Shown: positions 2,151 to 58,120 of the stretch, one piece after another | How the letters are laid out: every line of letters begins with the position of its first letter | Position numbering within the stretch: the first letter of the stretch is position 1 | Assembly: GCA_965204335.1 (NCBI GenBank) | Contig: OZ241982.1 | Coordinates: forward strand, 775,462-839,461 | Reading direction: 5' to 3' | DNA from: Dehalococcoidia bacterium | Lineage (GTDB): Bacteria > Chloroflexota > Dehalococcoidia > Bin125 | DNA length: 64,000 nt | Notes under the pieces: generated by a model | Database searches by the model: none | What the model was told of the DNA's origin: nothing | Seen by the model: only the letters and a program-made list of their open reading frames with translations | Position numbers and translations under genes: made by a program

Positions 2151-2280
2151 CCCCATCGCAGGGGAGACGCCGTGTATCCGTTTCTGCTCTCCCCCCGCGT
2201 TGCGGGGGAGATGCCGCGTATCCGTTTCTGCTCTCCCCCCGCGTTGCGGGGGGAGATGCCGCAGGCAGAGGGGGGCTTCC
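2151..2280. repeat. Tandem array of three GC-rich hairpin units (module B family) between cysE and cysS
   Basis: ccccatcgcagggg..., then ccccccgcgttgcggggg-agatgccgcgtatccgtttctgctct, then ctccccccgcgttgcggggggagatgccgcaggcagaggggggcttcc. Period about 44 nt, each unit with a C6GC/GCG6 stem. Confidence 0.85.
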
Positions 2281-2297
2281 CAGGCTCCCAGCAATCC

Positions 2298-3008
2298 CTA
2301 CCCCGCCGCCGTCTCCCCCGGCCGATCACCCGCGTCGTCCAGCTGGTCGCGCAGCCGACGCAGGTCGAGCCGCAGCTCCGACACGGCCAGTTCCAGCGAC
2401 TCAATCCGATCATGCTCCGGGTCGGGCAGGCGCAAGATCGTGTCGTCGCCGGGATCGTAGTACGCCACCACATGCCCCGGCACGCCGACGACCGTCGAAT
2501 GAGGCGGCACGTTCGAGACCACCACGGCCCCTGCGCCGATCCGCGCGCCCGTGCCGATCGAGACCGCGCCGATGATCGACGCGCCCGCGCCGACCAGGAC
2601 GTCGTCCCCGAACATCGGGTGACGCTGCATGCGCATCGTCGAGGTGCCGCCCAGGGTGACGCCCTGGTGCAGGTGACAGCGCTTCCCCAGCCGTGCCGTC
2701 TCACCGATCACGACGCCCATTCCATGGTCGATCAGGCACGGCGACGCGATCTGTGCGCCGGGATGAATCTCAATCCCGGTCATGTTGCGACCCAGGTGCG
2801 AGAGGAACCTCGGCAGCACCGGCACGCCGAGGCGAAGCAAGGCTCCCGACACCCGGTGCAGCATCAGCGCGTGCACACCGGGATAGGCGAGCAGGACCTC
2901 GAGCCAGTTCGTCGCCGCCGGATCGCGCTGCATCGCGAACCGGATGTCCGACCACGTGTCGTCAACGAACGAGTTGTACCAGCGGATCAGCCGAAACAGG
3001 TACTCCAT
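2298..3008 (-). CDS. cysE: Serine O-acetyltransferase with a C-terminal coiled-coil-like tail
   Basis: Left-handed beta-helix hexapeptide repeats (GIEIHPGAQIASPCLIDHGMGVVIGETARLGKRCHLHQGVTLGG). Position between ispDF and cysS as in Firmicutes. Confidence 0.85.
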   Translation of the reverse strand: MEYLFRLIRWYNSFVDDTWSDIRFAMQRDPAATNWLEVLLAYPGVHALMLHRVSGALLRLGVPVLPRFLSHLGRNMTGIEIHPGAQIASPCLIDHGMGVVIGETARLGKRCHLHQGVTLGGTSTMRMQRHPMFGDDVLVGAGASIIGAVSIGTGARIGAGAVVVSNVPPHSTVVGVPGHVVAYYDPGDDTILRLPDPEHDRIESLELAVSELRLDLRRLRDQLDDAGDRPGETAAG

Positions 3009-3017
3009 AAGCGCAGC

Positions 3018-4199
3018 CTATACGTCCTGCGGCCCGCGACGACGTACGCGCAGCGTCGCGACGGCGTGGGCGGCGATTCCCTCGCCCCGTCCGAGCGCGC
3101 CCATGCCTTCAGCCGTCGTGGCGGCGACGTTGACCGCAGACACGTCGAGCCCCAACCCTGCCGCCAACACCCGTCGCATCGCCTCGATATGCGGCCTCAG
3201 CCGAGGCCGCTCGGCGATCACCGTGGCGTCGACCGACTGAGGACTCGCGCCGACCTCAGCCAACCGCTCCAGGACCAGCTTCAGCATTGCCATGGAGCTG
3301 GCGCCGGCCCATTTCGGGTCCGATGTCCCAAACTGCGCGCCGATGTCGCCCAGTCCCGCGCCGCCCAGCAACGCATCGATGATCGCGTGCGTCAGGACGT
3401 CGGCGTCCGAGTGTCCGGCCAGCCCCTCGTCAGAGGGAATCGTGACGCCCCCCAGAACCAGTTCGCGGCCGGGCGCAAAGCGATGCGAATCGATGCCGAT
3501 GCCGGTCCGCACCTCGAACGTCGCGCCCAGCAATGCCTCCGCGACCACCAGATCGGACGGCGACGTGATCTTCGGATTGGGCTCGCCCACGTCGTGCACC
3601 ACCACCGGCTCGCCCAACCGCTCGACCAGCGCGGCATCATCGGTGGCCAGCACCCCGTCGCGCCGTGCCGCTTCATGAGCACGGCGCAGGGTCGCCGCGC
3701 GAAACACCTGCGGCGTCGCCACGGCACGCAGCGTCGAGCGATCCGGCGTCGCCTGAATCCGTTCCCCGTCGTCCACGACCTTGATCGTGTCGACCGCTGG
3801 ACCGCCGGCGATCACGCTGACCCCGTCCCGCGCCCGTTCCACGCAACCGGCGATGCCTCGCGCGGAGATCAACGGCCGAGCTCCGTCGTGAACGGCGACG
3901 AGTCCGACCTCGGCCAGCGCGGACAGTCCGGCCCGGACTGAATCCTGACGTTCCTTGCCGCCCGTCAACAGCGCGCGGACCTTGTCATGGCCGCGACAGA
4001 GCTCGGCGGCGTCCGACCGGTTCGCCTCAGACGTCACCACCACGATGTCGTCGATCGATGCGCATTCCTGAAACGCTGCCAGGCTCCAACTCAGCACGGG
4101 TCGGCCGGCGAGATCAGCCAGCAACTTGTCGCCGCCGCCCATCCGGCGGCTGCTGCCGGCCGCCAGGATGATCGCCCCTACTCTCCCGTCCTGACTCAC
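3018..4199 (-). CDS. ispDF: Bifunctional IspD/IspF (2-C-methyl-D-erythritol 4-phosphate cytidylyltransferase / MEcPP synthase)
   Basis: N-terminus AIILAAGSSRRMGGGDKLL (IspD). C-terminus GIGIDSHRF...GHSDADVLTHAIIDALLGGAGLGDIG (IspF). Confidence 0.9.
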   Translation of the reverse strand: MSQDGRVGAIILAAGSSRRMGGGDKLLADLAGRPVLSWSLAAFQECASIDDIVVVTSEANRSDAAELCRGHDKVRALLTGGKERQDSVRAGLSALAEVGLVAVHDGARPLISARGIAGCVERARDGVSVIAGGPAVDTIKVVDDGERIQATPDRSTLRAVATPQVFRAATLRRAHEAARRDGVLATDDAALVERLGEPVVVHDVGEPNPKITSPSDLVVAEALLGATFEVRTGIGIDSHRFAPGRELVLGGVTIPSDEGLAGHSDADVLTHAIIDALLGGAGLGDIGAQFGTSDPKWAGASSMAMLKLVLERLAEVGASPQSVDATVIAERPRLRPHIEAMRRVLAAGLGLDVSAVNVAATTAEGMGALGRGEGIAAHAVATLRVRRRGPQDV

Positions 4200-4209
4200 G
4201 CCCCCATCC

Positions 4210-5187
4210 TCACGTCGGGTCCTCGTCCGCCGCCAACTGGGCGAAGACCATCCGCCCCGCCTGTGTCTGGATCACCCGCTTCACGACCAGTGAGCGCATC
4301 TGGCCGATCGACTCCGCTCCTTCCTCGACCACCACCATCGTCCCGTCCGCCAGATAGCCCACGCCCTGGTGTTCGCCGCGTCCGCGCTCGATCACCTCGA
4401 CCGTCAACGACTCGCCCGGCAGGACGTTGGTCTTCACCGCATTGGCCAGCACGTTGAGGTTGAGCGTTCTCACACCCTCCAGCTCGGCGACCCGTGCCAG
4501 GTTCGCGTCCGTCAGGGCCAGCGCTGCACCGCGCTCGACCGCCATGCGCACCAGCCGCGCATCCACATCGCCGTCGGTCTCCGACGATCCGTCGTCGACG
4601 ATCTCGGTCGTGACGGTCTCTTCTCCCTGCAGCCGTGACAGCAGCTCCAGTCCGGCTCGGCCCCGGCCCCGCCTCAGCGCGTCCGAACTGTCCGCCACCC
4701 GGCGCAACTCATCGAGTACGAAGCGGGGCACGACGATATTCGCAAGAATGAAGCCGCTGCTCGCCACCTCGGCGATACGCCCGTCGATGATTGCCGAGGT
4801 ATCGAGGATCACTTCCGAGGGCGCCGGCGGGCGGGTCAGCGCCACCGACTCGGCCCGACCTCGGACCGTGTTCACGAACCGCTCCACCTCGGCGCGCCGA
4901 CCCAGCGCCACGCCGACTCCGATCGGCGCCAGCAGAATCGCCACGCCGATTGGCGCAAAGTCGCCGGCCGCGCCGGGCAGGTTGTCGAGCACGGTCGACA
5001 GCAGCGACGCGGCGACCAGCGCGGCCACCAGCCCAAACCCGCCCAGCAGGATCTCCAGCGTCGACAGCGAACGCCAGATGCCCTGCCGAAACCACGTGAC
5101 CGGATAGAGCAACCGGTCCCAGAACCGAAACGCTGCCTCCAGCACGACAGTCCCCAACAAAGAAAATGGCGGCCATGCGGCCGCCAA
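4210..5187 (-). CDS. yacL: YacL-like membrane-anchored PIN plus TRAM domain protein
   Basis: N-terminal transmembrane helices, PIN core (VILDTSAIIDGRI...VVPRFVLDEL) and C-terminal TRAM (GESLTVEVIERGRGEHQGVGYLADGTMVVVEEG). Conserved synteny yacL-ispD-ispF-cysE-cysS. Confidence 0.8.
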   Translation of the reverse strand: MAAAWPPFSLLGTVVLEAAFRFWDRLLYPVTWFRQGIWRSLSTLEILLGGFGLVAALVAASLLSTVLDNLPGAAGDFAPIGVAILLAPIGVGVALGRRAEVERFVNTVRGRAESVALTRPPAPSEVILDTSAIIDGRIAEVASSGFILANIVVPRFVLDELRRVADSSDALRRGRGRAGLELLSRLQGEETVTTEIVDDGSSETDGDVDARLVRMAVERGAALALTDANLARVAELEGVRTLNLNVLANAVKTNVLPGESLTVEVIERGRGEHQGVGYLADGTMVVVEEGAESIGQMRSLVVKRVIQTQAGRMVFAQLAADEDPT

Positions 5188-5282: not shown

Positions 5283-5450
5283 TTCCGGTCCCCTCTCCCC
5301 GAGGGAGAAGTCTGCCCCGCACTTGATGCGGAGGGTGAGAGCCTGCCCCCGCGTAGGCGGGGGGCGAGGGCCCTCCGACCCACCGCACACTCCCTCCGAT
5401 GCCCCGCACTTGATGCGGGGACAACCGGGCCTCCCCGCCTGCGCCCCGAG
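5283..5450. repeat. Composite interspersed repeat cluster (degenerate module C, module A copies, a B-like hairpin)
   Basis: cccctctccccgagggagaag, ccccgcacttgatgcgg, cccccgcgtaggcggggg, ccccgcacttgatgcgggg. Each shares modules with ten or more other loci in the window. Confidence 0.85.
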
Positions 5451-5650
5451 GCCGTGTCGACAAGCACCATGTCGTATAGGGACGCCCTAGCGCGACTCCA
5501 CAGGTACGCGACCAGCGCCGGCGGCAAAGTAAGAAATCCGGTGAAGCCGGTGTCGATCACTGCATCGATCTCGCGCACCGCACCCGCCGGGCCCTGCACC
5601 GTCAGCCTGATTACTGCCTCATAGGCGGGGCTAACCGCGCCCTCGATCAC
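5445..5650 (-). pseudogene. Retropepsin-like (clan AA) aspartic protease fragment, 3' end replaced by the repeat cluster
   Basis: GTG start overlapping the upstream stop as GTGA. IRLTVQGPAGAVREIDAVIDTGFTGFLTLPPALVAYL carries the DTG catalytic motif typical of bacterial retropepsin-like domains. The frame then runs into repeat-derived low-complexity sequence after about 70 aa. Confidence 0.45.
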
Positions 5651-5916: not shown

Positions 5917-5967
5917 CGAAGGCTCCTCCGCTTCAGTATGTCAGACACACCATCTCGTCCCCAACGA

Positions 5968-6214
5968 CCCTCCCTCCGGTTCCCTCCCCCCGAGGGAGAA
6001 GCCTGCCCCGCACTTGATGCGGGGCCCAGACCTCCACCGTCGAACCCAAACCAAAGCTCTCCCCCAACTCCGCCATCCCCTCCGATCCCATCTCCCCCCG
6101 CCGCCAGGTGGGGGGAGATGCCGAAGGCAGAGGGGGGCTCCCTCCGCCCCAGACCCAACACCGAAGCCTGCCCCGCACTTGATGCGGGGATGTCACCAGG
6201 CGACAGAACGCCCC
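5968..6214. repeat. Composite interspersed repeat cluster (modules C-like, A, B, A plus an atgtcacNNNgacagaNNgcccc tail)
   Basis: ccccgcacttgatgcgggg occurs twice. The 60-nt cctccgatcccatctccccccgc...ggggggagatgccgaaggcagaggggggc block is nearly identical to 46657..46714. Confidence 0.85.
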
Positions 6215-6292
6215 ATCACACTCCCATACAGAACACCAGTTCACATATAATCGATCCCCTATCACGCGGCCGTCAGCGCAGGAGCCCGTCCC

Positions 6293-36085: not shown

Positions 36086-36093
36086 CGCTCTCG

Positions 36094-41142: not shown

Positions 41143-41170
41143 CAGCGCGTGCTCCCAATCACCGTTCGAG

Positions 41171-41485: not shown

Positions 41486-42003
41486 CAGTTGTCGTCCTCA
41501 TCAGGTGAGGCGAGCATGATCGCGCCGTCCAGCGCAATCGAGAGCAGCACGCCGACGATGATGAAGGGCACGATCCAGACCGTGAAGATGGCGTCGCCGA
41601 TCTCTTGCAGACCGACGGGCTCCATGGCCGATGTGCTTTCCGGCGTGACCCAGGTCGTGGCGACGATCCCGCCGATCAGGGCGGCCATCAGGCCGAGTGA
41701 AGCGGCAATGCCCAACGGTCGGGAACGCCCGAACAACGCTTGCGGGCGTTCTCTCGCTCTGGTCAGCATGAGCGCGAACAGGATCAGGATGACCACCGCG
41801 GAGCCGTAGATCAGGAGCTGGACCAGGGCGATGAACTCGACGGTGAGGATCAGGTAGATGCCGGCCACGCCGGCCAGCGCAGCGATGAAGAACAGCGCGG
41901 CGTAGACGATATTGCCCGCTGTGATCACGCCGATCGCGGAGACCAGCATGACCACGGCCAGGATCCAGAACACCACCTGAGTCGCGGTGACGCCGTCCTC
42001 CAC
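41485..42003 (-). CDS. nuoJ: NADH-quinone oxidoreductase subunit J
   Basis: 172 aa membrane subunit. Follows nuoH directly, with no nuoI between. Confidence 0.8.
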   Translation of the reverse strand: MEDGVTATQVVFWILAVVMLVSAIGVITAGNIVYAALFFIAALAGVAGIYLILTVEFIALVQLLIYGSAVVILILFALMLTRARERPQALFGRSRPLGIAASLGLMAALIGGIVATTWVTPESTSAMEPVGLQEIGDAIFTVWIVPFIIVGVLLSIALDGAIMLASPDEDDN

Positions 42004-42030
42004 GCGCTTGCTCCTCTTCTCGTCTGTCCG

Positions 42031-43239: not shown

Positions 43240-43304
43240 CTAGGCCATCCCCACGGGCTGCTCTGGCTGCCCACGCAGGTTACACGCGATTCCGCTTACG
43301 ACCA

Positions 43305-44483
43305 TTAGCGGTCAACCTCGCAGAGCACGATGTCGATCGAACCGAGCGCCACCACGGCGTCGGCGAGGTAGGTGTTGATCACCTGCGGCTTCAGCGAGGA
43401 GAGGTTGTGGAAGCATGGTGAGCGCATCTTCACGCGCCACGGCTTGTCGGTCCCGTCGGAGACCATGTAGATGCCGTACTCGCCGCGCGGATTCTCCTGG
43501 CGCATGTAGATCTCGCCGGGCGGAGGACGCAGACGGGCCGGCATTCGCTCCGGCTCGATCGCACCCGAGGTTGGCATCTGGTCGAGCGCCTGGCGCAGGA
43601 TCGTGACCGACTGGCGCATCTCTTCGAGCCGCACGAGATAACGGTCGTAGACGTCGCCGCGCTCGCCGACCGGAATCTCCCAGTGGAAGCGGTCGTAAAT
43701 CGAGTAGGGCTCGTCGACCCGCAGATCGAACGGCACGCCTGAGGCTCTCAGCATCGGGCCGGTGACGCCGAACGAGATTGCTTCTTCGGCCGTCATCGCA
43801 CCGACATCGCGGCAACGGGCGACAAAGACCTCGTTGTTGGTCATCAGGTCGTCCACGTCTGAGATCCCGATTTCAACCTGGTCGAGCACCCAGTGCGAGT
43901 CCTCGATGAAGGTCTCATGCGGCTCCCAGGCGAGCCCGCCGACGCGGAAGTAGTTGTACATGATCCGGTCGCCGCAGACCGCTTCGAACAGGTCCTGGAT
44001 GCGTTCGCGCTCCTTGAACGTCCAGGTGAACGCGGTACCGAAGTAGCCCACGTCGGTGCCGAATGCGCCCATGAACATGAAGTGCGAGAGCAGCCGGTTG
44101 AACTCGGCCAGGATCAGGCGGACGTACTCGGCCCGCTCTGGAATCTCGATCCCGGCCAGGCGCTCGACGGCGTTGACGTAGACCCACTCGGAGTTAAACG
44201 CGGCGAGATAGTCGGTGCGGTCCTGGTAGCCCAAGGCGCCGCGATAGTCGAGATTCTCGGACAGCTTCTCTCCGCCGCGGTGCATGTAGCCGATGTACGG
44301 GATCGCGTCCTTGACGATCTCGCCGTCCACGGTCAGCACCATGCGGAAGACGCCGTGCGTCGCCGGGTGCTGCGGCCCGATGTTGATGTTCATGTCGACG
44401 GTTTCGAACTCGCGCTCGACGACGACGGGTTCGGTGAGTACTTCACCTTCAACGGTTCGCTGGACCATGGGGGCTACTCCCAA
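43305..44483 (-). CDS. nuoD: NADH-quinone oxidoreductase subunit D
   Basis: 49-kDa subunit, NiFe-hydrogenase large-subunit fold (MNINIGPQHPATHG). Confidence 0.9.
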   Translation of the reverse strand: MGVAPMVQRTVEGEVLTEPVVVEREFETVDMNINIGPQHPATHGVFRMVLTVDGEIVKDAIPYIGYMHRGGEKLSENLDYRGALGYQDRTDYLAAFNSEWVYVNAVERLAGIEIPERAEYVRLILAEFNRLLSHFMFMGAFGTDVGYFGTAFTWTFKERERIQDLFEAVCGDRIMYNYFRVGGLAWEPHETFIEDSHWVLDQVEIGISDVDDLMTNNEVFVARCRDVGAMTAEEAISFGVTGPMLRASGVPFDLRVDEPYSIYDRFHWEIPVGERGDVYDRYLVRLEEMRQSVTILRQALDQMPTSGAIEPERMPARLRPPPGEIYMRQENPRGEYGIYMVSDGTDKPWRVKMRSPCFHNLSSLKPQVINTYLADAVVALGSIDIVLCEVDR

Positions 44484-44543
44484 ATCCTCGTCGTGTTCAT
44501 CGTCATGTCGCGACCGTCAACCCCTCTGGCAATCGAGTGCCGA

Positions 44544-45548
44544 CTACTCGCCGCGCAACTGGGCGCGTCGGGCGGCGGCAAGCTCGCGGCCGAGTCTGAC
44601 CCGTTCTGATTGCGCGGCAGCGCGGCCTTCGGGATCTTCTTCGGCGTCGGGGATCGTCGGCAGTTCGGGCGGCGGCGGCGCCGGCGGACGGTCGTCCTGG
44701 GCAGGAGCCGCCGACGGCGCAGCCTCGGCCGCCGCGGGAGCGGCGGCCGGAGCCGCGGCCGGGCGCGGCGGCGGCGCGGCGCCCTCGGGTCGCGGACCGC
44801 CGGCAGGCGGCGCGCCGGCCAGGCGCTCGGCCCGGCGCACAGCGGCGAGCTCTCGGGCGCGGCGGACGCGCTCGGCCTGCTCGGCCCGGCGCTCCTCGCG
44901 CTCCTCTTCGGTCATGTCCTCGACCCGCTTGCGTTCGGGCGCGGCGGCGGCGGCCGCTTCCGGAGCCGCCTCTTCCTCCTCCGCCGGCTCCGGCGGTGGG
45001 TACTCCTTGGTGAAAAACTCGACATCGACGCCCTGCTCCATCTCGATCGGCGCGAGCGGATGGCTCTTGCGCAACGGATGGATGTCGAGGTCTTCGTCGA
45101 GCAGCAGGTTGCGCGGATCGGGATGGCCGATGAACTCGATCCCGAACATCTCGCGGCATTCGCGCTCGGCCCAGTCGGCCATCTCGTAGATGTCGGTCAC
45201 CGACTCGACGACCGCGCCGTCGGATGGAAGCCAGGCCTTGATCGTGACGGCCTGGCGCAGCGGAATCGAGTAGAGGTGATAGACGATCTCGAGGCCGCGA
45301 TCTTCCCAGTCGACCGCGGTTTGATTGCGCAGCAGGTTCATCTGCAGACGCTCGTCCTCGCGGCCGCGCTCGAGCACCTCGTGGATCGAGTCGGGAGGAA
45401 TCGTCAGCGCGACGTCGTCGCCCTTGGTCAGCGCCGCGTCGAAACTGACGAGCGGCATGACCTCGCGATAGGTGTCGGCGATCGAACCGGGAGGCGGCTC
45501 GTGACTCGGCGGTTCCTCGGGTGCGGCCGGCGTACGACGTGACGTCAT
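44544..45548 (-). CDS. nuoC: NADH-quinone oxidoreductase subunit C, with a low-complexity C-terminal extension of about 150 aa
   Basis: 30-kDa subunit core, then an Ala/Pro/Glu/Arg-rich tail containing two copies of an ER.RRA.ELAA.RRA.L motif. Confidence 0.8.
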   Translation of the reverse strand: MTSRRTPAAPEEPPSHEPPPGSIADTYREVMPLVSFDAALTKGDDVALTIPPDSIHEVLERGREDERLQMNLLRNQTAVDWEDRGLEIVYHLYSIPLRQAVTIKAWLPSDGAVVESVTDIYEMADWAERECREMFGIEFIGHPDPRNLLLDEDLDIHPLRKSHPLAPIEMEQGVDVEFFTKEYPPPEPAEEEEAAPEAAAAAAPERKRVEDMTEEEREERRAEQAERVRRARELAAVRRAERLAGAPPAGGPRPEGAAPPPRPAAAPAAAPAAAEAAPSAAPAQDDRPPAPPPPELPTIPDAEEDPEGRAAAQSERVRLGRELAAARRAQLRGE

Positions 45549-45554
45549 GGTTGG

Positions 45555-46127
45555 TTAGTAACCCCGCGCGCGTTCTTCGACGATCTTCTCCTGCAGGGCA
45601 AGCAAGCCGTCGATCAGAGCTTCGGGACGGGGCGGGCAACCGGGCACGTAGACATCGACCGGGACAATATTGTCGACGCCCTGCACGACGCGGTCGTACT
45701 GGGTGTAGGGGCCGCCGTTGGTCGCGCAGGCGCCCATCGAGATCACCCATTTGGGGTGCGGCATCTGCTCGTAGAGCAGCTTGACCGCCGGGGCCATCTT
45801 CTTGGTCACCGTGCCCGCCACGATCATCACATCGGACTGGCGCGGAGACGGCCAGGGCACGATTCCGAAGCGGTCGAGGTCGTGATTGGCCATGTAGGTG
45901 GCGATCATCTCGATCGCGCAGCAGGCGAGTCCGAAGGTCATCGGCCAGAGCGATGACTTGCGCGCCGCCGAGATCAGCGCCTCCGCCGGCGCCTGCATCA
46001 CCCCGGGCAGCACGACCTTGTACGGGACCGTCGGAGGCTGGTCGTCGATCGCCTGCAAGCGCAGCGATTCCGGCGAGATGATCACAGGCGTGGGATCGCC
46101 CATATGTGGTGGCTGGGAGGTCGTCAT
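45555..46127 (-). CDS. nuoB: NADH-quinone oxidoreductase subunit B
   Basis: N2 cluster Cys ligands (GLACCAIEM...). 20-kDa subunit. Confidence 0.9.
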
Positions 46128-46152
46128 ACGCCGCGTCTCGCTGTCTGTTCCA

Positions 46153-46542
46153 TCAGTTTCGTTGCCAGTCGAACACGCCCTTGCGCCAGGCGTAGGCCAG
46201 CGCGATCAGCAGCGTGCCGATGAAGAGAACCATCTGCCAGAGAATCACCTTGCCGAACTCGGGCTCGTCCATCAGGCCGAGGAAAGACACGGCCCAGGGC
46301 AAGAGGAAGACGACCTCCACATCGAACACGAGAAACAGCAACGCATAGGTGTAGTAGCGGACGTGGACCTGGGCCCAGTTGCGGCCGATCGGCAGCATGC
46401 CGCATTCGTAGACTTGGCCCTTGAGCGCCGTGCGCCGCTGCGGAGCGAGCAGCTTGGTCGCCAGCAGCGCCGTCAGGACGAGCATGATCCCCACGGGGAT
46501 CGCGACCAGGACCGCGCCATAGTTCTCGAACAGCTCAGACAC
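46153..46542 (-). CDS. nuoA: NADH-quinone oxidoreductase subunit A
   Basis: 129 aa, three transmembrane helices. First gene of the operon. Confidence 0.85.
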
Positions 46543-46656
46543 GTCTACCTGCCGTCACCCGCTCTGAAAATGCGCACCAGATTCCCCAGTGCGAACAGAT
46601 CGTACCCGCGCGGCATAATCAGGGTCAATGTTTGGCCGACGAAACAGGCGAGCCCA

Positions 46657-46714
46657 TCCTCCGATCCCATCTCCCCCCGCTGTGCGGGGGGAGATGCCGA
46701 AGGCAGAGGGGGGC
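46657..46714. repeat. Module B interspersed repeat upstream of the nuo operon
   Basis: cctccgatcccatctccccccgctgtgcggggggagatgccgaaggcagaggggggc. Near-identical to 6078..6137 apart from the loop. Confidence 0.85.
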
Positions 46715-46766
46715 AGCGGCTTTGCCCACAGGTCGGCAGTGGAGTTGCTTGCAAAGGATGTCGAAG

Positions 46767-47258
46767 TCAGGGCGTAAGTCCAAGATCACTTTCATACTTG
46801 AACTCGATCGTCTCATTCACATCCTCGAGCTCCCGCGAGCCGGTCTTCACGTAGCCCAGACGCTCGTACAGCCGATGCGCATCCTCAAACCGCGTGTCCG
46901 ACCATAACTCGATCCGCCACGCCCCATGCTCGCGAGCCCACGCGACCCCGGTCTCAAACAACCGCCGGCCCAGTCCTCGCCCGCGCAGATGCGCGTCCAG
47001 ATAGAGCCGGTGCAACTCCACGGTCGGCCCATCGACCCGCTCCGCCGCAATCGAGCCCACCACAGCGCCGTCCCCGTCGCGCATGACCCACATCGCGCCG
47101 ATCGGCGAGCGGTACGGAAACGCCTGCTCCTCGGCCAGCAGATCCCAGAACTCATCCTCGGGATCCCAGATGAACCCGTACTCGTCGAAGACCCGGTGGA
47201 TCAGCTCGATCACCTCAGGCGCGGCTTCGTAGCCAGCCGGCTCTATCTGGAAGCTCAT
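46767..47258 (-). CDS. GNAT family N-acetyltransferase
   Basis: 163 aa with acetyl-CoA binding motif (RGRGLGRRLFE). Confidence 0.75.
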   Translation of the reverse strand: MSFQIEPAGYEAAPEVIELIHRVFDEYGFIWDPEDEFWDLLAEEQAFPYRSPIGAMWVMRDGDGAVVGSIAAERVDGPTVELHRLYLDAHLRGRGLGRRLFETGVAWAREHGAWRIELWSDTRFEDAHRLYERLGYVKTGSRELEDVNETIEFKYESDLGLTP

Positions 47259-47327
47259 GGCGCGTTACTCTGCTGCTGTAGACGACCACGTTCAGATCAA
47301 GTGCATTGCGCACGTGAGGAGCACGAT

Positions 47328-48470
47328 ATGGGACCGCTCAGCGGCATTCGCATCATTGAATTCCAGGGCATCGGACCGGGCCCCTTCTGCGGCATGATCC
47401 TGTCCGACATGGGCGCCGACATCGTCCGCATCGACCGCGCCTCGAACGCTCCGGGTGAAGCGCCGGCCAATCCGCCCGGTGACCTGCTCGCCCGCGGCCG
47501 GCGCTCGATCGCGCTCGACCTCAAGAACCCCGAGGGCGTCGAGGTCGCGCTCAAGCTGATCGAAGGCGCCGACGCGCTCTTCGAGGGCTTCCGTCCGGGC
47601 GTGATGGAACGTCTGGGTCTGGGCCCGGACGTCTGCCTCGAGCGCAATCCCAAGATCGTCTACGGACGCATGACCGGCTGGGGTCAGGAAGGTCCGTACG
47701 CGCAGATGGCCGGCCACGACATCAACTACATCTCGCTGGCCGGTGCGCTGGCCCCGATCGCGCGCAAGGGACAGGTTCCGGTGCCGCCGCTCAACCTGGT
47801 CGGCGACTTCGGCGGCGGCGGCATGTACCTCGCCGTCGGCATGCTCGGCGCCCTGATCGAAGCGCAGCGCTCGGGCAAGGGCCAGGTCGTCGACGCAGCC
47901 ATGGTCGACGGCGCATCCTCGCTGATCACCTCCGTCCACGCCGGACTCGCGACCGGCAGCTGGCGGCGCGGACGCGCGGCCAACGTGCTCGACACCGGCG
48001 CGCACTTCTACGACGCCTACGAGACGCTGGACGGAAAGTTCGTCTCGATCGGCTCGATCGAGCCGCAGTTCTACGCCGAGCTGCTGCACCTGCTCGGCCT
48101 CGAGAACGAGGAGCTCCCGCACCAGATGGACAACACCCGCTGGCCCGAGCTCAAGGATCGCGTGACCGCCATCTTCCGCACCAAGACCCGCGCCGAGTGG
48201 GAAACCATCTTCGAGGGCTCCGACGTCTGCTTCGGCCCCGTCCTCGAACCGTGGGAAGCCCCCAACCACCCGCACGCCAAGGCCCGTGGAGCATTCGAAG
48301 AGGTCGCCGGCGTCGTCCAACCCGCCCCAGCCCCGCGCTTTAGCCGCACCGAATCGAAGATCCAGGGCCCGCCCGCCTACCCGGGCGAGCACACCGACGA
48401 GATCCTCGCCGAAATCGGCCTCAACGGCTCCCAGGGGGAACAACTCAAAACCGCCGGCGCCGTCGCCTGA
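47328..48470 (+). CDS. CoA-transferase family III protein (CaiB/BaiF / alpha-methylacyl-CoA racemase-like)
   Basis: N-terminus GIRIIEFQGIGPGPFCGMILSDMGADIVRIDR and catalytic Asp region. GAGGAG Shine-Dalgarno upstream of the ATG at 47328. Confidence 0.85.
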   Translation: MGPLSGIRIIEFQGIGPGPFCGMILSDMGADIVRIDRASNAPGEAPANPPGDLLARGRRSIALDLKNPEGVEVALKLIEGADALFEGFRPGVMERLGLGPDVCLERNPKIVYGRMTGWGQEGPYAQMAGHDINYISLAGALAPIARKGQVPVPPLNLVGDFGGGGMYLAVGMLGALIEAQRSGKGQVVDAAMVDGASSLITSVHAGLATGSWRRGRAANVLDTGAHFYDAYETLDGKFVSIGSIEPQFYAELLHLLGLENEELPHQMDNTRWPELKDRVTAIFRTKTRAEWETIFEGSDVCFGPVLEPWEAPNHPHAKARGAFEEVAGVVQPAPAPRFSRTESKIQGPPAYPGEHTDEILAEIGLNGSQGEQLKTAGAVA

Positions 48471-48506
48471 CGCATTGATTCGCACGGACGACTACGACCT
48501 GACGAC

Positions 48507-48676
48507 TCCCTCTCTCCCCCCGCTCCGCGGGGGGAGATGCCGAAAGCCCGCCCCCGGCCTGAACGGGGGGCAGAGGGGGCTCCCGCCAGGCAACCAACAG
48601 CCACCTCCCTCTCCCTCCGGGAGCGAGAAACCGAACCTCCCTCTCCCCCTGGGAGAGGGCCGGGGTGAGGGCTCCG
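48507..48676. repeat. Composite repeat cluster (module B, a cccccggcctgaacgggggg hairpin, ctccctccgggag, module C)
   Basis: tccctctctccccccgctccgcggggggagatgccgaaagcc ... cctctccccctgggagagggccggggtgagggctcc. Confidence 0.85.
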
Positions 48677-48690
48677 GAAAGCAACACCCA

Positions 48691-49737
48691 ATGGCCTCAA
48701 TCACCGACTACCGCCTCTACCCCGCCATCCAGGCCCAACCATCCGAGTGCGCCAAGCTCCTCAGCAGCGCCCAACCCTTCGACCGCGCGGCCCAAACCCT
48801 CTCGGACGCCTCCCGCGTCTGGACCGTCGGCATCGGCACCTCGTTCAACGCCGCCAACGCCGCCAGTTGGATGCTGCGCGCCGCCGGACTCGAAGCGCGC
48901 CCGCTCACGAGCTTCGAGTTCGCCACCTGGCCGACGGTCACCGACGGCGACGCCGTTCTCCTCTTCGCCCACACCGGCCGCAAGACCTACAGCGGCAACT
49001 CGCTGGCGCTCTGCATTGAGCGCGGCATCCCCGTCGTGCTGATCACCAGGGTCGAGACCGAATTCGACCTCGACTCCTTGCCCGACAGCGTGACCGTGCT
49101 GCACACGACCACGCAGGACCCGTCCTCGATGTACACGATCTCCCACACCACGGCGATGTCCGCGGCGGCGAAGATCGCCGACCTCGTCTCACCCGGCGCG
49201 ATAGGCGATATCTCGGAGATTCCATCGGCGCTCGCCTCGGCACTCGCACTGGAGGACGAAATTGCGGAGTTGGCGTCCGAGTGGTCGTCGGGGGCAATAG
49301 TCGCCCTGGGCGCAGGACCGATGTTGACCGCCGCCGAGGAGGCGCACATCAAGATCGCCGAAGCCGCGCGCCGCGCCGTCCGTCACCAGGAGCCGGAGTC
49401 CTTCCTCCACGGCCCCGTCGTCCAGATCACCGACTCCGACCGTATCCTCACCTTCGCCGCCAACGACGACTCGGCCGACCGGACCCGCGCGATCACGCAG
49501 TTGACGATGGACAACGGCTGCTCAGCCGCCTGGGTCGCGCCCGAGAGCGTGTCCGCCCCCGAATCCGCGCGTCACCTCACGCTGGCCGACCTAACACCTG
49601 AGTTGCTCGCGATCCCCGCCGTCGTCCCCGCGCAGCTGCTCGCCGGCCACCTCGCCGCCAACGACGGCGTCAACGCCGACGACTTCCGCACCGACGTCCC
49701 CGAGTTCCGCCAGGCGCTCTCAAAGCTGTCGCTCTAG
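48691..49737 (+). CDS. SIS (sugar isomerase) domain protein, AgaS/GlmS-isomerase-like
   Basis: Two SIS-like halves (VWTVGIGTSFNAANAASW; IVALGAGPMLTAAEEAHIK). ATG at 48691 just after the repeat cluster. Confidence 0.75.
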   Translation: MASITDYRLYPAIQAQPSECAKLLSSAQPFDRAAQTLSDASRVWTVGIGTSFNAANAASWMLRAAGLEARPLTSFEFATWPTVTDGDAVLLFAHTGRKTYSGNSLALCIERGIPVVLITRVETEFDLDSLPDSVTVLHTTTQDPSSMYTISHTTAMSAAAKIADLVSPGAIGDISEIPSALASALALEDEIAELASEWSSGAIVALGAGPMLTAAEEAHIKIAEAARRAVRHQEPESFLHGPVVQITDSDRILTFAANDDSADRTRAITQLTMDNGCSAAWVAPESVSAPESARHLTLADLTPELLAIPAVVPAQLLAGHLAANDGVNADDFRTDVPEFRQALSKLSL

Positions 49738-49748
49738 CGACCAGCCGT

Positions 49749-49791
49749 TTCAGTCCCCTCTCCTTCCGGGAGAGGGCTAGGGTGAGGGTCC
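49749..49791. repeat. Module C repeat in the 40-nt convergent gap. It overlaps the valS stop codon and last four codons.
   Basis: tttcagtcccctctccttccgggagagggctagggtgagggtccc. The valS C-terminal GPSP plus TAG stop are read from ggtgagggtccc on the minus strand. Confidence 0.85.
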
Positions 49792-52566
49792 CAACGCGCC
49801 GATACGCGATTCGATGTCGGCCTGCTGACGCTGGAGGTCGGCGGCGAGTTCTTCCGCCTGCTTGACGACCTCGGCCGGCGCCTTCGAGCGGAAGCCTTCG
49901 TTGGCCAGCTTCGCCTCCGCACCCCTCAGCCGCTTGAGGATGCCTTCGAGGTCCTTGTTCAGCCGGGCTCGCTCCTGCTCCAGATCGATCAGGCCGCCCA
50001 ACGGCAGGATGACTTCTGCGGCGGGCAGCACGGCAGACGCGATCTGGTCGGTGGGAGCCTGGGCTCGCTCAGCAACGATGGTCAGCGGTCGCGCACGGGA
50101 CAACACCTCGACGATCGGAGCCGACGCGCTCACGGCCTGAGCCACGTCCGCCTGCGGCAACACAAACGCTTCCGCCCACTGACCAGCCTGCACGCGGTAG
50201 TCGGCCCGAACCTGGCGGACTGCGGTAACGATCCCCTGCACAGCCGCGAACGCCTCCTCGGCCTCCAAGTCGCGTGAGGCGTCGCCAGGTTGCGGGAAGC
50301 GAGCTCCGATCAGCGCAGTGGCGTCGGCCGCCTCGCCGAGGTGAGGCCGAAGCTGCTGCCAGATCGCCTCGGTCACGAACGGCATCCACGGGTGCAGCAG
50401 ACGCAGCCCATCGTCGAGCACCTTGGTCAACACCGGCAGCGGCGTGAGATCTCCGTTGCGCAGGCGAACCTTGCTCGCCTCGACGTACCAGTCGAAGAAC
50501 TCGCCCCAGAGGAAGTCCTGGATCTGCCGGCCGGCCTCGCCGAGTTGGAACTGCCGCAGCAGTTCATCGACCGAGTCGGTCACCGCCTGCAGCCGCGAGA
50601 GGATCCAGCGATCCTCCAGCGCGGAGCCCCCCTCTGCCTGCGGCATCTCCCCCCGCGAAGCGGGGGGAGCAGGAGCCTGGGCATCGGCAATCTCGCCCAG
50701 CACGAACTTGGCGCCGTTCCAGAGCTTGTTGGCGAAGTTGCGCGAGCCTTCCAGCCGCTCGTCCGTCAGCCGCATGTCGTTGCCTGGCGTCGACCCCGTC
50801 GCCAACGTGAAGCGCAGGGCGTCCATCCCGTACTGGTCGGCCTTTTCCAGTGGGTCGATCACGTTGTCGAGCGACTTCGACATCTTGCGGCCCTGCGCGT
50901 CTCGGACCAGACCGTGCAGGTAGACCGTGTGGAACGGGGCCGAACCCATGTTGTAGCAGCCCAGCATGATCATCCGCGCGACCCAGAAGAAGAGGATGTC
51001 GTAGCCGGTTTCCATCACCGACGACGGGTAGAACCGCGCCAGGTCCTCCGAGTCGGCGTCGGGCCAGCCCAGCGTCGAGTGCGTCCACAGGCCCGACGAG
51101 AACCACGTGTCCAGCACATCCGGGTCCCGGACGAAGTCGGCGTCGTCGCACCACGGGCACTCGGTCGGGTCGGTCATCGCAACAATCGGGCGGGCGCCTT
51201 CGTCGATCGTGATCTGGCCGTCGTCCCCGGTGATGATCGCGTCCCCGTCGCAGCAGCGGCAGTACCAGGCCGGAATCCGGTGTCCCCACCAGAGCTGCCG
51301 CGAGATGCACCATGGCCGGATGTTGTCCATCCACTGCAAGTAGACGTTCTTCGAGCGTTCGGGAACGATCCGGACCTCGTCCTCGCGCACGACCCGCGCC
51401 GCTTCGGCCGCCATCTCGTCGGTGTCGACGAACCACTGGTTCGACACCAGCGGCTCGACCACTACGCCGGAGCGCTGCGAGTGCCCGACGTTGTGGATGT
51501 GCGTCTCGGTCTCGACCAGGTAGCCGTCCTCCTCCAGGTGCTGAGCGACCAGTTCCCGCGCCTCGTCCCGATCCATGCCCGCGTAGAGACCCGCCTCCGC
51601 CGTCAGCGTGCCGTCCCAGTCGACCACGCGGATCGGCTCCAGCCCGTGCCGTTCGCCGATCTCGAAGTCGAGCTGGTCGTGACCGGGCGTGATCTTCAGC
51701 GCGCCGGTGCCGAACTCCAGGTCGACGCCCGAGTCGGCGATCAGCGGAATCAGCCGGTCGAAGCCCCGCAGCGGCAGCCGAACCCGACGGCCCAGGTGCG
51801 GCTGCCAGCGTTCGTCGTCGGGATGGACGGCGATAGCGACATCTGCCGGAATCGTTTCGGGCCGCGTCGTGGCGATCACCACCCCGTCGTCCAGCTCGTT
51901 GCCGCGCTCGTCGACGAACGGGTAGCGCACATGCCAGAGCTTGCCTTCTTCCTCCTCGTACTCGACTTCCACGTCGGACAGCGCGGTCAGCATCTGCGGG
52001 TCCCAGTTGATGATCCGAGCACCGCGGTAAATCTTGCCGTCCTGGAACAGGTCGACGAACGTCTTGCGGACAGCGTCGCGCGGCGTCGGATCGAGCGTGA
52101 ACGCCGTGCGCTCCCAGTCGCAGGACGCACCCATCCGCCGCGCCTGCGAGGTGATCCGAGGTCGGGTCACCCCGACCCACTCCCAGACACGCTCCTCGAA
52201 CGCCTCGCGGCCAAGGTCGTGACGGGTCATCCCTTCGCGCGCGAGCTGCTGCTCGACCACGCTCTGCGTCGCAATCCCGGCGTGGTCCAGGCCAGGCAGC
52301 CACAGCGTCGGCTCACCGAGCATTCGGTGCCAGCGGATCAGGGCGTCCTCGATCGTCAGCGTGACCGCATGGCCCAGGTGCAGCACGCCGGTGACGTTGG
52401 GCGGCGGCATGATCACCGTGAACGGTTCCCGGTCCCCGTCCGACTCGGCCGGACGGAACCAGCCGTTGTCCTCCCAGAACGCATAGATCGGATCCTCGAC
52501 GATCGAGGCGTCGTACGCGCCGGTCAGATCGCTCAGGATTGAGAGGTCGAACGCTGTGCTGGTCAC
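49777..52566 (-). CDS. valS: Valyl-tRNA synthetase, containing an in-frame copy of the module B repeat
   Basis: HIGH motif (PPPNVTGVLHLGHA), KMSKS motif, editing domain, anticodon-binding DRWILSRL. Residues ...APPASRGEMPQAEGGSALE are encoded by the repeat at 50620..50666. Confidence 0.9.
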   Translation of the reverse strand: MTSTAFDLSILSDLTGAYDASIVEDPIYAFWEDNGWFRPAESDGDREPFTVIMPPPNVTGVLHLGHAVTLTIEDALIRWHRMLGEPTLWLPGLDHAGIATQSVVEQQLAREGMTRHDLGREAFEERVWEWVGVTRPRITSQARRMGASCDWERTAFTLDPTPRDAVRKTFVDLFQDGKIYRGARIINWDPQMLTALSDVEVEYEEEEGKLWHVRYPFVDERGNELDDGVVIATTRPETIPADVAIAVHPDDERWQPHLGRRVRLPLRGFDRLIPLIADSGVDLEFGTGALKITPGHDQLDFEIGERHGLEPIRVVDWDGTLTAEAGLYAGMDRDEARELVAQHLEEDGYLVETETHIHNVGHSQRSGVVVEPLVSNQWFVDTDEMAAEAARVVREDEVRIVPERSKNVYLQWMDNIRPWCISRQLWWGHRIPAWYCRCCDGDAIITGDDGQITIDEGARPIVAMTDPTECPWCDDADFVRDPDVLDTWFSSGLWTHSTLGWPDADSEDLARFYPSSVMETGYDILFFWVARMIMLGCYNMGSAPFHTVYLHGLVRDAQGRKMSKSLDNVIDPLEKADQYGMDALRFTLATGSTPGNDMRLTDERLEGSRNFANKLWNGAKFVLGEIADAQAPAPPASRGEMPQAEGGSALEDRWILSRLQAVTDSVDELLRQFQLGEAGRQIQDFLWGEFFDWYVEASKVRLRNGDLTPLPVLTKVLDDGLRLLHPWMPFVTEAIWQQLRPHLGEAADATALIGARFPQPGDASRDLEAEEAFAAVQGIVTAVRQVRADYRVQAGQWAEAFVLPQADVAQAVSASAPIVEVLSRARPLTIVAERAQAPTDQIASAVLPAAEVILPLGGLIDLEQERARLNKDLEGILKRLRGAEAKLANEGFRSKAPAEVVKQAEELAADLQRQQADIESRIGALGPSP

Positions 52567-56280: not shown

Positions 56281-56421
56281 CCAGCCGTCCCCAATCCAAT
56301 CAGCCCCGCATCAGGGCATACATATCCAGTGTAGCCGCGACAGAGATGCCCGTGAATCGCCTCAGCCGCAAGCCACCCGGTTGCGCTGCCCAGTTCCGCT
56401 TCACAGCCCCGCCAGGTTCCC

Positions 56422-57369: not shown

Positions 57370-57490
57370 CGCAATGCACTCCCCGCCGGCGGCGTAACTT
57401 GGCTCACGCCGTCAAGTTATCTCACGCCTCCAAAACGCACAGCCCTCGTCGCCGGTTGTCAAGGCTATACACCAACACCCGGTGGACACA

Positions 57491-57565
57491 CCCTCTCTCC
57501 CCTCCCTTCCCCTCTCCCCCCGCTTCCAGCGGGGGGAGATGCCGCAGGCAGAGGGGGGCTCCCAA
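57491..57565. repeat. Module B interspersed repeat between prs and a small hypothetical gene
   Basis: ccctctctcccctcccttcccctctccccccgcttccagcggggggagatgccgcaggcagaggggggctccc. Confidence 0.85.
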
Positions 57566-57643
57566 ACCTCCGCATGTCCCTATTCAACATCAGAACCTGA
57601 TAAATTCAGAACATACATACTCCACGAGACAAGGAACACCCCG

Positions 57644-57964
57644 ATGCCCAATCCCTACCATTTCCGCGCCAGGATCGACCGACTCTGGCGGCGCGCCAAC
57701 GCCCCCGGCCCCGGCTACAAGCAACTCAACGCCCTCGACGCCGTCGTCCGGGAACTGTTCGCCCCGAACGAGCGAGCCCGCCGCAACTATCAGCTCTACC
57801 TCGCCACCGACCCCTACGACGTCGCCCGCCACCTCCTCCGAGACCTCTACGACCGCACCTCCCCTTCCCCCTCTCCCCCCGCGCCTATTCAAGTCGCCCC
57901 CGCGCAGGCGGGGGCCGCACCGACTGAGGATGACCCGCTCGACGAAGACGACGACCCCTGGTAA
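57644..57964 (+). CDS. Small hypothetical protein with a repeat-derived Pro/Ala-rich acidic C-terminus
   Basis: 106 aa. AT-richer promoter-like region upstream. Residues SPSPSPPAPIQVAPAQAGAAP are encoded by module B-like sequence ccccttccccctctccccccgcgcc...cccccgcgcaggcggggg. Confidence 0.5.
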   Translation: MPNPYHFRARIDRLWRRANAPGPGYKQLNALDAVVRELFAPNERARRNYQLYLATDPYDVARHLLRDLYDRTSPSPSPPAPIQVAPAQAGAAPTEDDPLDEDDDPW

Positions 57965-58035
57965 CCGCCAACCTCCTCCCAGGTCCCCGCTCGTTTTTTC
58001 TCTCAGCGGATCACCCGCCTCCGGCCCCGCCGTGC

Positions 58036-58120
58036 CTGCCCCGCACGACAATGCGCCTCCCCCTTCCCCTCTCCCCCCGCCTGCGGCGGGGGGAGAGGTC
58101 ACGTAGAGACAGAGGGGGGC
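58036..58120. repeat. Degenerate module A plus module B plus tail repeat upstream of groES
   Basis: cctgccccgcacgacaatgcg...ctccccccgcctgcggcggggggagaggtcacgtagagacagaggggggc. Confidence 0.8.

Follow-up and report, generated by a model that had tools for sequence, protein, structure and literature searches.

A 64,000-nt stretch of the genome of a Dehalococcoidia bacterium (contig OZ241982.1, positions 775,462 to 839,461; hereafter the window) carries short, GC-rich, hairpin-forming repeats, termed modules A, B, and C, at 13 loci. What kind of element are these repeats, and how do they come to lie where they do? The answer that appears on balance probable to us is that the loci are mosaics of B and C repeats, which follow the sequence plan of an intrastrand triplex, and of plain A hairpins, and that they represent non-autonomous mobile or unstable DNA that is defined by its structure. 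Comparison with related genomes establishes the three-arm architecture of B and C, its covariation, the dispersal of the repeats throughout the clade, their gain, loss, and nesting in near-identical genomes, and their repeated in-frame insertion into protein linkers. An earlier description, made from the letters of the window alone (the sequence-only reading), considered the family to be uncharacterized and REP/MITE-like; the key feature that it overlooked is a third arm that forms a mirror repeat.

Three-arm architecture of modules B and C

Modules A, B, and C recur at all 13 of the loci listed by the sequence-only reading, as read directly from the DNA, and the coordinates given for them are correct. 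Pattern searches, in which up to three mismatches were allowed, return five copies of module A, six of the B tail, five C loci, and two of a so-called shared tail, each against a chance expectation of approximately zero from 100 dinucleotide shuffles, and a repeat finder gives the same families. The 13 loci sum to approximately 1.3 kb, or 2% of the window, which has a G+C content of 64-70%. Their spacings are irregular (87 to 28500 nt), in agreement with the statement that they are not CRISPR. The window proteins are closest to those of metagenome-assembled genomes (MAGs) labeled Chloroflexi, Chloroflexota, or Dehalococcoidia bacterium, many of them from sponge metagenomes, and full B copies are present in at least 12 related Chloroflexota/Dehalococcoidia MAGs, the mark of a dispersed family rather than of a local duplication.

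Module B consists of a hairpin, TCTCCCCCCGC-loop-GCGGGGGGAGA, followed by TG, a mini-hairpin of the form GCC-GMA-GGC or GTCNC-GKA-GNGAC, and a last segment, AGAGGGGGGC, which mirrors the purine arm of the hairpin and is not complementary to it. This last segment, the so-called tail, is integral to module B. Similarly, the shared tail, ATGTCACGTAGTGACAGAGGGGGGC, does recur but is not a module of its own: it is the alternative second-loop mini-hairpin, GTCAC-GTA-GTGAC, followed by the third arm of B. The description of conserved stems and variable loops is accurate for hairpin 1 of B, the loops of which are found in both orientations relative to the tail. Module C adopts the same plan with a 3-nt second loop, CCCTCTCCC / GGGAGAGGG / GGGTGAGGG. 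Judged by sequence, B and C have the plan that defines class II (purine-motif) intrastrand triplex motifs, and each is in this sense a potential triplex. The arms of B agree with the ITxF definition, which asks for a length of 6-15 nt and for triads of the C-G·G, T-A·A, or T-A·T type, and read TCTCCCCCC / GGGGGGAGA / AGAGGGGGG in nine of the 10 window copies; the second loop, at 10-16 nt (up to 39 nt with a nested A), exceeds the ITxF limit of 1-6 nt. A generic triplex-motif finder was set to require a perfect 8-nt pyrimidine/purine hairpin, loops of 3-9 nt (first) and 1-45 nt (second), and a mirror arm in which no more than one position mismatches (T being allowed for A). It returns 21 matches in the window, whereas 100 dinucleotide shuffles give none.

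Module C is already known, and the family is in this respect not uncharacterized: C is the published intrastrand-triplex repeat TMECO, formerly called BoxC or PIT, of which 3610 copies have been described in 262 proteobacterial genomes (Holder et al. 2015, PMC4666352; Hoyne and Maher worked on it earlier), and B has the same three-arm plan. The published pattern, CCCTCNCCC-N3-6-GGGNGAGGG-N3-GGGNGAGGG, has three exact matches in the window (31823, 34573, and 48639; none expected), and the C copy at 49756 fits it with one mismatch, one mismatched pair being allowed. Both TMECO loop 2 types, TTA-like and CCG, occur among the window copies. By BLAST, C reaches 97% identity with E. coli copies over 38 nt. 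One E. coli copy is CGGTCCCCTCTCCCTGAGGGAGAGGGTTAGGGTGAGGG, where the window has CGGTCCCCTCTCCCTGAGGGAGAGGGCTAGGGTGAGGG, and similar sequences are found in 4391 of 5426 E. coli genomes, in related Chloroflexota loci, and in 581 plasmid or chromid records from Enterobacteria, Rhizobia, Azospirillum, Neisseria, and cyanobacteria. Near-identical E. coli oligonucleotides form a stable triplex in vitro by circular dichroism and nuclear magnetic resonance (NMR), with 18 imino signals (PMC4666352). The occurrence of C in Chloroflexota is a modest extension of these findings.

The exact TMECO/C pattern is also present in at least 120 viral or proviral contigs of IMG/VR (L130-L249; 37-73% G+C), some of which hold several copies and which may include host flanks. 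The 2015 paper reports no association of TMECO with phages or plasmids (PMC4666352). For module B, searches return only weak partial matches in plasmids and none in viral contigs.

Covariation of the arms and of the second loop

Eight sub-families with different arms keep the mirror rule across Chloroflexota, Thermoanaerobaculia, Proteobacteria, and other phyla. Given as purine arm / third arm, these are B (GGGGGGAGA / AGAGGGGGG), a single variant B copy at locus L050 (GGGGGGAGG / GGAGGGGGG), B2 (GGGGGAGG / GGAGGGGG), B3 (AGGGGGAG / GAGGGGGT), B4 (AAGGGGAG / GAGGGGTT), a Thermoanaerobaculia sub-family (GGGGGGAGAAGG / GGATGAGGGGGG), a sub-family of Alpha-proteobacteria, Akkermansia, and Pirellulaceae (GGGGGGAGAGGG / GGGTGAGGGGGG), and module C as the eighth (GGGAGAGGG / GGGTGAGGG). 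The variant at L050 carries T>C in its pyrimidine arm, with A>G and A>G at the corresponding positions of the other two. Because the arms of six sub-families are asymmetric, a mirror repeat can be distinguished from a direct repeat; all six are mirrored, and the only changes are from A to T, substitutions that are permitted in purine-motif triads. What a dimeric protein would recognize is an inverted repeat, not a mirror repeat, and the pattern therefore points to a nucleic-acid fold. Outside Chloroflexota, the hairpin of B is found at 68 loci, 42 of which have the mirror arm; the Firmicutes and Leptospiraceae hairpins are without it. In the Proteobacteria, Akkermansia, and Pirellulaceae versions, the second loop is 2-3 nt in length.

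The mini-hairpin in the second loop covaries as well. Among 38 copies from approximately 12 genomes in which its stem is 5 bp (termed B'), the middle pair is A-T in 16, C-G in 13, G-C in four, and T-A in four, with the window copy at 58069 as the sole unpaired case; pairing is kept in 97% of cells overall, and the covariation score is reached by none of 500 shuffles. The 3-bp mini-hairpin of Thermoanaerobaculia occurs in the compensatory forms GCC-GAA-GGC and GGC-GAA-GCC. GNA triloops closed by a C-G pair form unusually stable DNA mini-hairpins, and DNA folding of B predicts hairpin 1 and the mini-hairpin, at -19 to -21 kcal/mol with a z-score of -3 to -4. B can be described as a putative triplex motif whose second loop is a covarying mini-hairpin; it is shared with Thermoanaerobaculia and lies outside the ITxF limits. 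No description of module B was found in the literature, nor of any of these repeats in sponge Chloroflexi. A three-way junction, in which the tail of B pairs with the pyrimidine-rich 5' flank, was considered and set aside: although 87.5% of cells would permit the pairing, it does not covary, and B2-B4 cannot form it.

The G-rich arms could alternatively be read as G-quadruplex regulatory elements, C containing G3-N3-G3-N3-G3-N3-G3 and B two G6 runs, and the canonical quadruplex motif GGGAGAGGGCTAGGGTGAGGG is kept in all C copies. A quadruplex, however, needs neither a conserved complementary pyrimidine arm nor a mirror order of A and T positions, B3 and B4 have too few G-tracts, and the imino signals of TMECO fit a triplex, not a quadruplex (PMC4666352). 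This reading is very improbable.

Mirror-armed repeats with the same hairpin core are found in Thermoanaerobaculia MAGs (L012, L025, L026, L039, L045, L057, and others), and the hairpin core with a mirror arm is found at the further non-Chloroflexota loci L022, L036, L065, L114, and L120. A Bryobacterales contig (OZ243965.1, 37-2700; L059) contains a regular array with a period of approximately 73 nt, the repeat of which includes a TCTCCCCCCGC-TTCG-GCGGGGGGAG hairpin; this array looks like CRISPR and unrelated to the interspersed family.

Module A and its nesting in B and C

Module A, at 24-25 nt, comprises an (A)GCCTG leader, a 6-7-bp stem (CCCCGCA, CCCCCGC, CCCCTGC, or CCCCCG), and a 4-7-nt loop. 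A third arm is lacking, and so is a GTAG or CGTC tag; GTAG is seen only within some loops. At least eight units are present in the window and more in related loci. The sequence-only reading described modules that combine in different orders; the loci are indeed mosaics, but in several of them one module lies inside another: a degenerate C (5290-5380) encloses two A-type hairpins, and the B copies at 34642-34713 and 48512-48580 each hold one in loop 2. At six loci in six genomes, A is inserted in the loop of the B mini-hairpin (GCCGAA^GGC); elsewhere, it separates the purine arm from ATG, interrupts the 3' arm of the B' mini-hairpin, lies within C at stem 2 or loop 2, or occupies the loop of another A. 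Insertion opposite to the orientation of B is observed once, and both orientations are thus represented. All of these sites are spots that are predicted to be unpaired in the folded host element, namely loops and arm junctions.

According to one alternative, proposed in the sequence-only reading, the window repeats would be classical REP/REPIN elements, and a Y1 HUH transposase of the RAYT type, with its gene at some other place in the genome, would move them. The REP/BIME and REPIN-RAYT elements of E. coli, Pseudomonas, and Stenotrophomonas are short GC-rich palindromic units arranged in mosaics, found mainly downstream of genes, with some supplying stop codons or lying inside open reading frames (ORFs) (PMC3733652). 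Module A resembles a 20-40-bp high-copy palindromic unit, has a conserved leader beside its stem, and inserts without target duplication into other palindromes, and the GTAG-23 REPs of a Chloroflexi species, Thermomicrobium roseum, are also found inside small palindromes (PMC3733652). A genuine GTAG-tagged REPIN-like inverted pair, GTAGGGGCAACCCTTGTGGTTGCCC, is present in a related genome (OZ253504.1, 4236-4340). In addition, the window units show a strand bias of at least 19:1, and single-strand transposases produce such biases (PMC6006769). However, A, B, and C all lack a terminal GTAG or CGTC tag, the A leader is AGCCTG, and A occurs mostly singly and not in inverted doublets. The third arm of B and C is absent from REPs. 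E. coli has a RAYT that goes with its REPs. TMECO/BoxC in this species is nevertheless a family apart from REPs with no known transposase (PMC4666352). A six-frame scan for the RAYT/IS200 motif (HUH followed by Y..NP) in the window and 124 loci, a crude test that covers approximately 1 Mb, of which approximately 0.6 Mb is from this lineage, found none. RAYT-driven movement is, on this evidence, unlikely.

The MITE half of the earlier label does not fit either. MITEs such as Correia/NEMIS, RUP, ERIC, and Nezha resemble the window units in being non-autonomous and dispersed, with stable folds, positions beside genes, and presence/absence polymorphism, but they are 70-300 bp in length with terminal inverted repeats of 15-30 bp and target-site duplications. 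The window units measure 24-60 nt and have no terminal repeats of this kind, and the single clean junction, that of A in B, is free of duplication.

Turnover between close relatives

Close relatives vary in the presence and absence of the repeats. The closest comparison is with locus L009 (ENA ERZ25068616 contig_1, 2.9 Mb), which aligns with window positions 40269-61279 at 91.6-98.4% nucleotide identity, 95-98% except for one 1.1-kb block. Five B or C copies are common to the two, and three repeat-associated differences are found over 21 kb. First, the window B at 48512 holds a 24-nt A-type hairpin, whereas the L009 copy is uninterrupted, and there is no target duplication at the junction. Second, a VanZ-like gene that is convergent to and downstream of valS in L009 (12786-13334) and in the relatives L126-L128 is missing in the window, where module C lies at the junction (49738-49791); the ValS C terminus changes from ...RIGALD to ...RIGALGPSP, each followed by the stop, with module C encoding GPSP. 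Third, a segment of approximately 550 nt (57506-58055) that contains a B copy and a small ORF, termed X, is present in the window and not in L009. A fourth difference is a 609-residue gene without a Pfam match between prsA and secA in L009 (4354-6183); its window counterpart, 56336-56407, is only approximately 70 nt, and no clear repeat is found at the junction. Elsewhere, in MAGs with 96% protein identity, the gap between two glutamine synthetase genes is filled by a different mosaic, made up of C and an inverted C that encloses an A; in relatives at approximately 90% protein identity, it holds only a plain hairpin. The 21-kb syntenic segments of two more distant relatives, L005 and L007, have no triplex motif where the window has four.

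Some of this turnover could arise without transposition, through homologous or illegitimate recombination, gene conversion, and replication slippage among copies, with non-B DNA making hotspots. In the B copy at 2161-2262, half of the element is tandemly duplicated (44 nt, 2.3 copies, 94% matches), an example of slippage within a repeat. Likewise, the VanZ deletion has C at its junction, one indel is bounded by two B copies, and partial internal deletions are observed, such as the valS remnant of L128. TMECO, for which no transposon link is reported, is associated with locally variable DNA in E. coli, where its loci are more variable than control loci (PMC4666352). Recombination alone, however, yields no de novo copies at unrelated sites, such as the valS linker with its three sub-families and the linkers of X paralogues, and does not account for how a whole A hairpin of 24 nt came to be inserted precisely into a B loop, or for the same architecture in several phyla and viral contigs. 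As the sole explanation, it is distinctly unlikely.

Insertions into protein-coding sequence

The repeats had been said to enter coding sequence, and they do so in valS and in the small ORF X. The B copy at 50627-50669 lies in the ValS linker between the catalytic and anticodon-binding domains. An alignment of 85 valS orthologues shows short linkers in distant relatives and differing repeat-derived peptides in close ones: the linker DNA contains B in the sense orientation in the window and L009, B2 and remnants in the sense orientation in L126, B3 in the antisense orientation in L127, and only a remnant in L128. At the end of the same gene, the C copy at 49756-49788 supplies the last four codons and the stop, so that the E. 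coli K-12 trait of TMECO, always intergenic, does not hold here.

ORF X belongs to a family of 215 proteins of approximately 100-125 residues, found in this clade only, at 2-4 copies per genome, and without a Pfam match. Its N-terminal part is confidently predicted by AlphaFold2 to be a four-helix domain, for which PDB has no significant match; a disordered linker joins this domain to an acidic tail, EEDDDP[LW], that is conserved. Almost every member has a linker repeat of its own, which may be B, B', C, C with A, or A, and the C-derived peptide PLPLGEGWGEG is found in the linkers of X paralogues. Members lie at window 57644-57964 (+), L129 4001-4321, L056 5606-5902, L088 2547-2855, L014 6847-7197, L017 1239-1463, and L111 2530-2805, and the genomic context differs among genomes. 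In the genome of L009, the X copy is at a different locus (L129), adjoining a C element, with 99% protein and 91% DNA identity.

The valS and X inserts resemble the protein-coding palindromes of Rickettsia and REPs inside ORFs (Di Nocera et al. 2013, PMC3733652). As in the Rickettsia palindromic elements (RPEs; Ogata, Claverie, as cited in PMC3733652), insertion is in frame at surface or linker positions and leaves the protein intact. Compared by description, RPEs are 100-150 bp in length, AT-rich, and found in Rickettsia only, whereas the window inserts are approximately 45 nt in length and GC-rich, and three sub-families occur at one valS site. In practical terms, the repeats create false ORFs and alter the C-termini and linkers of real proteins, as in ValS, and they probably also break MAG assemblies.

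A peptide that can be encoded by the GTAG-tagged type of REP seen in OZ253504.1, GRPQGSP, is found in the valS linker of the relatives P0144, P0150, and P0154.

Gene context and strand

The placement of the repeats was described as almost exclusively after stop codons or in convergent gaps, which is overstated. Seven of the 13 window loci follow a stop codon, at distances of 3-60 nt, and 5283-5450 would be an eighth only if a putative ORF at 5445-5650 is real. Of the remaining loci, four are in two divergent gaps (5917-6292 and 57370-58345), with 57860-57912 inside the small ORF (57644-57964), and one falls within valS. Across 498 kb of related DNA, 27 B copies lie in convergent gaps, 41 in tandem gaps (30 sense and 11 antisense), nine in divergent gaps, and 17 in called ORFs, some of these last likely reflecting over-extension of the ORF.

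Such positions are compatible with host-selected punctuation at the level of RNA or transcription, in which 3'-end hairpins would stabilize mRNA, attenuate read-through, or separate cistrons, as proposed for REP/BIME. The loci past stop codons, the sense bias in the tandem gaps of related DNA, and the very stable hairpin 1, together with the folding energy of the whole element as DNA, all agree with such a role. Against it, half of the tandem-gap copies in the window are antisense, copies also lie in divergent promoter gaps and inside ORFs, the same housekeeping gaps are without elements in relatives, and an ordinary RNA hairpin has no use for a mirror third arm. An earlier study found PIT/TMECO to be without promoter or terminator activity in E. 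coli (cited in PMC4666352). Punctuation as the basis of the family is improbable. Intrinsic terminators, considered as a candidate, were rejected: no U/T tract follows any element, the tails are G-rich, and a terminator and promoter scan of 31000-50999 calls none.

With respect to strand, at least 19 of the window units are on the plus strand and one, the valS copy, is on the minus strand, regardless of gene orientation. Outside the window, the G-rich face is on the locally C-rich strand in 71 of 101 cases. The relation of orientation to GC skew hints at a strand-asymmetric process, which is suggestive only and is confounded by coding-strand composition; in a replichore test, B orientations at six positions on one complete chromosome, OZ242948, show no clean switch.

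A proposed structure-based mode of spread

We propose that the pyrimidine arm of B and C pairs with the purine arm as a hairpin and that the mirror third arm may fold back along the purine arm. Units would spread or rearrange while the DNA is single-stranded and folded, during replication or repair, with the help of a factor that acts in trans and that would be encoded outside the window, and the loops of folded elements would be the preferred targets of A. The main consequences would be local rearrangement, as cassettes move or sequence is deleted, and from time to time the exaptation of a unit as a stop codon or linker peptide. Among candidate enzymes is an HUH/Y1-type single-strand transposase, plausible by analogy on account of the lack of target duplication, hairpin recognition, and strand bias. 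In IS200/IS605 elements, the cleavage site is recognized through non-canonical DNA-DNA contacts near the foot of a hairpin. The likeness to these elements is a mechanistic analogy only and concerns folded single-stranded hairpins, the lack of target duplication, and strand or orientation bias (PMC6006769); the window elements are far smaller and carry a full-length third arm, and no transposase gene was found with them in the DNA scanned.

Several observations weigh against this proposal. The crude motif scan of the window and 124 loci provides no candidate for a transposase or other mobilizing gene. Pfam searches identify no transposase among approximately 20 of approximately 55 window proteins, those near elements, or in the dense clusters L081 and L123, where the proteins are housekeeping or unknown. 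Similarly, 25 years of work on TMECO in E. coli have not uncovered a transposase (PMC4666352), which calls for caution on an HUH/Y1 mechanism, and a stable TMECO triplex was not detected in vivo in E. coli (PMC4666352). The A-in-B locus is a single clean pair of filled and intact sites at high identity, and the other differences between the window and L009 could be deletions or recombination, not insertion. The sense bias of B in tandem gaps (30 vs 11) also fits an RNA-level or transcription-linked role, and Watson-Crick pairing of the B tail with the 5' flank is possible in 87.5% of cells, though absent in B2-B4. Punctuation, recombination, and quadruplex formation each explain some features, but not the mirror arm together with the de novo insertions.

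Among the closest known systems is TMECO/BoxC/PIT. Module C fits the pattern and B obeys the same three-arm rule, and the copies are mostly intergenic, present in multiple copies, sometimes with an inverted partner, and linked with local rearrangement. The differences are that the host of the window belongs to a Chloroflexota lineage, whereas the exact motif was published from 262 proteobacterial genomes (PMC4666352); that the structured second loop of B is 10-16 nt as opposed to 1-6 nt in ITxF; that window copies are interrupted by the A family and occur in frame inside genes; and that the density is far higher. E. coli K-12 has 23 TMECO copies in 4.6 Mb (PMC4666352), and the four C and 10 B copies of the window amount to 14 in 64 kb, roughly 40 times that density. 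What seem to be new variants of known phenomena are the systematic nesting of an untagged REP-like hairpin within the loops of B and C, the covariation among the three arms, and the in-frame inserts that recur. BoxC/PIT/TMECO have been known for approximately 25 years, and this clade could make their nature and movement tractable: because of the high density, the covarying sub-families, and the near-identical genomes that differ by single events, questions of third-strand selection and mobility are testable.

A broader and less probable possibility is that B and C form one cross-phylum superfamily of structure-defined mobile DNA, the three-stranded fold of which is preserved by selection and recognized by a single-strand DNA-processing machinery, perhaps one conserved in many bacteria, that copies or inserts units. 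Such a superfamily would span Chloroflexota, Acidobacteriota, Proteobacteria, Verrucomicrobiota, and Planctomycetota, with C-type members in cyanobacterial plasmids and viral contigs as well. If this were true, the three-way covariation would be comparative, in vivo evidence that some machinery recognizes bacterial intrastrand triplexes, and the sponge-symbiont clade, with its burst of sub-families and its nesting, would be a system in which to identify that machinery. The multi-copy protein X, with its repeat-hosting linker and acidic tail, might be connected with it.

Catalogue of loci and neighboring features

The elements of the window are collected in Table 1. The gene map on which the contexts are based was made from GC content at third codon positions (GC3) and Pfam, and the genes are ordinary housekeeping genes: cysS, two glutamine synthetases, the nuo operon, valS, secA, prsA, groES/EL, and rpoC. 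At the gathering score, the sole Rfam 15 match in the window is tRNA-Thr; no repeat module is matched.

Table 1. Repeat elements of the window, with strand and surroundings
Position	Strand	Element	Context
2161-2275	+	B copy with 44-nt tandem duplication of its 5' half	between hexapeptide-transferase stop (2298, -) and cysS start (2088, -)
2231-2275		B unit of the above: pyrimidine arm, loop GTT, purine arm, mini-hairpin GCC-GCA-GGC, third arm AGAGGGGGG	
5290-5421	+	degenerate C (5290-5380) split by A-type hairpins (5309-5333, 5340-5364); separate A (5400-5421)	
5985-6207	+	mosaic: degenerate half C with A (6000-6024); full B (6091-6137); A (6165-6189), then decayed B'-type mini-hairpin	divergent gap
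31823-31855	+	C, exact TMECO pattern, loop 2 TTA	after GYD-domain gene; 20 nt from 3' end of tRNA-Thr (31876-31950, -)
32794-32838	+	B	approximately 15 nt past response-regulator stop (32779)
34573-34713	+	C (34573-34605, exact TMECO pattern) and B' (34642-34713) with A hairpin (34665-34689) between purine arm and GTCAC-GTA-GTGAC mini-hairpin	together fill gap between glutamine synthetase genes
46670-46713	+	B	between GNAT stop (46767, -) and nuoA start (46542, -); shared with L009 (97% identical)
48512-48671	+	B (48512-48580) with 24-nt A-type hairpin (approximately 48545-48568) in mini-hairpin loop; degenerate pyrimidine/purine hairpin (48607-48628); C with loop 2 CCG (48639-48671)	
49756-49788	+	C, one stem mismatch	convergent gap; its CTA (49777-49779) is the valS stop codon
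50627-50669	-	B, encodes PPASRGEMPQAEGG	in frame inside valS (49777-52566, -)
57512-57558	+	B	left edge of approximately 550-nt segment (57506-58055) missing from L009
57606-58036	+	431-nt cassette with small ORF X (57644-57964)	partial B pyrimidine arm and A-like hairpin (57860-57913) within linker-coding part of ORF X
58036-58119	+	degenerate A (58036-58055) and B' (58069-58119)	B' mini-hairpin has broken pair GTCAC/GAGAC; intact in L009, GTCTC/GAGAC

The contig with the GTAG-tagged pair (OZ253504.1; L081) also carries, at 1950-4030 and adjoining that pair, an array of paralogous genes of 80-116 residues, each with a conserved upstream CACATTTGCTGTACAATCCCCCCATG and separated from one another by B copies in both orientations. 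Integron attC sites were considered for this array and dropped on reading of the sequence, which has no R' or R'' boxes.

The two glutamine synthetase genes of the window are in tandem (33025-36085) and have in common a 77-nt stretch at 77% identity (33906-33982 and 35431-35507); the tandem arrangement is kept in all relatives compared. No exact match to the window glutamine synthetase is on record. Upstream of groES, a perfect CIRCE-type inverted repeat, TTAGCACTC-N9-GAGTGCCAA (58276-58302), which we take to be the HrcA operator, is conserved in L009.

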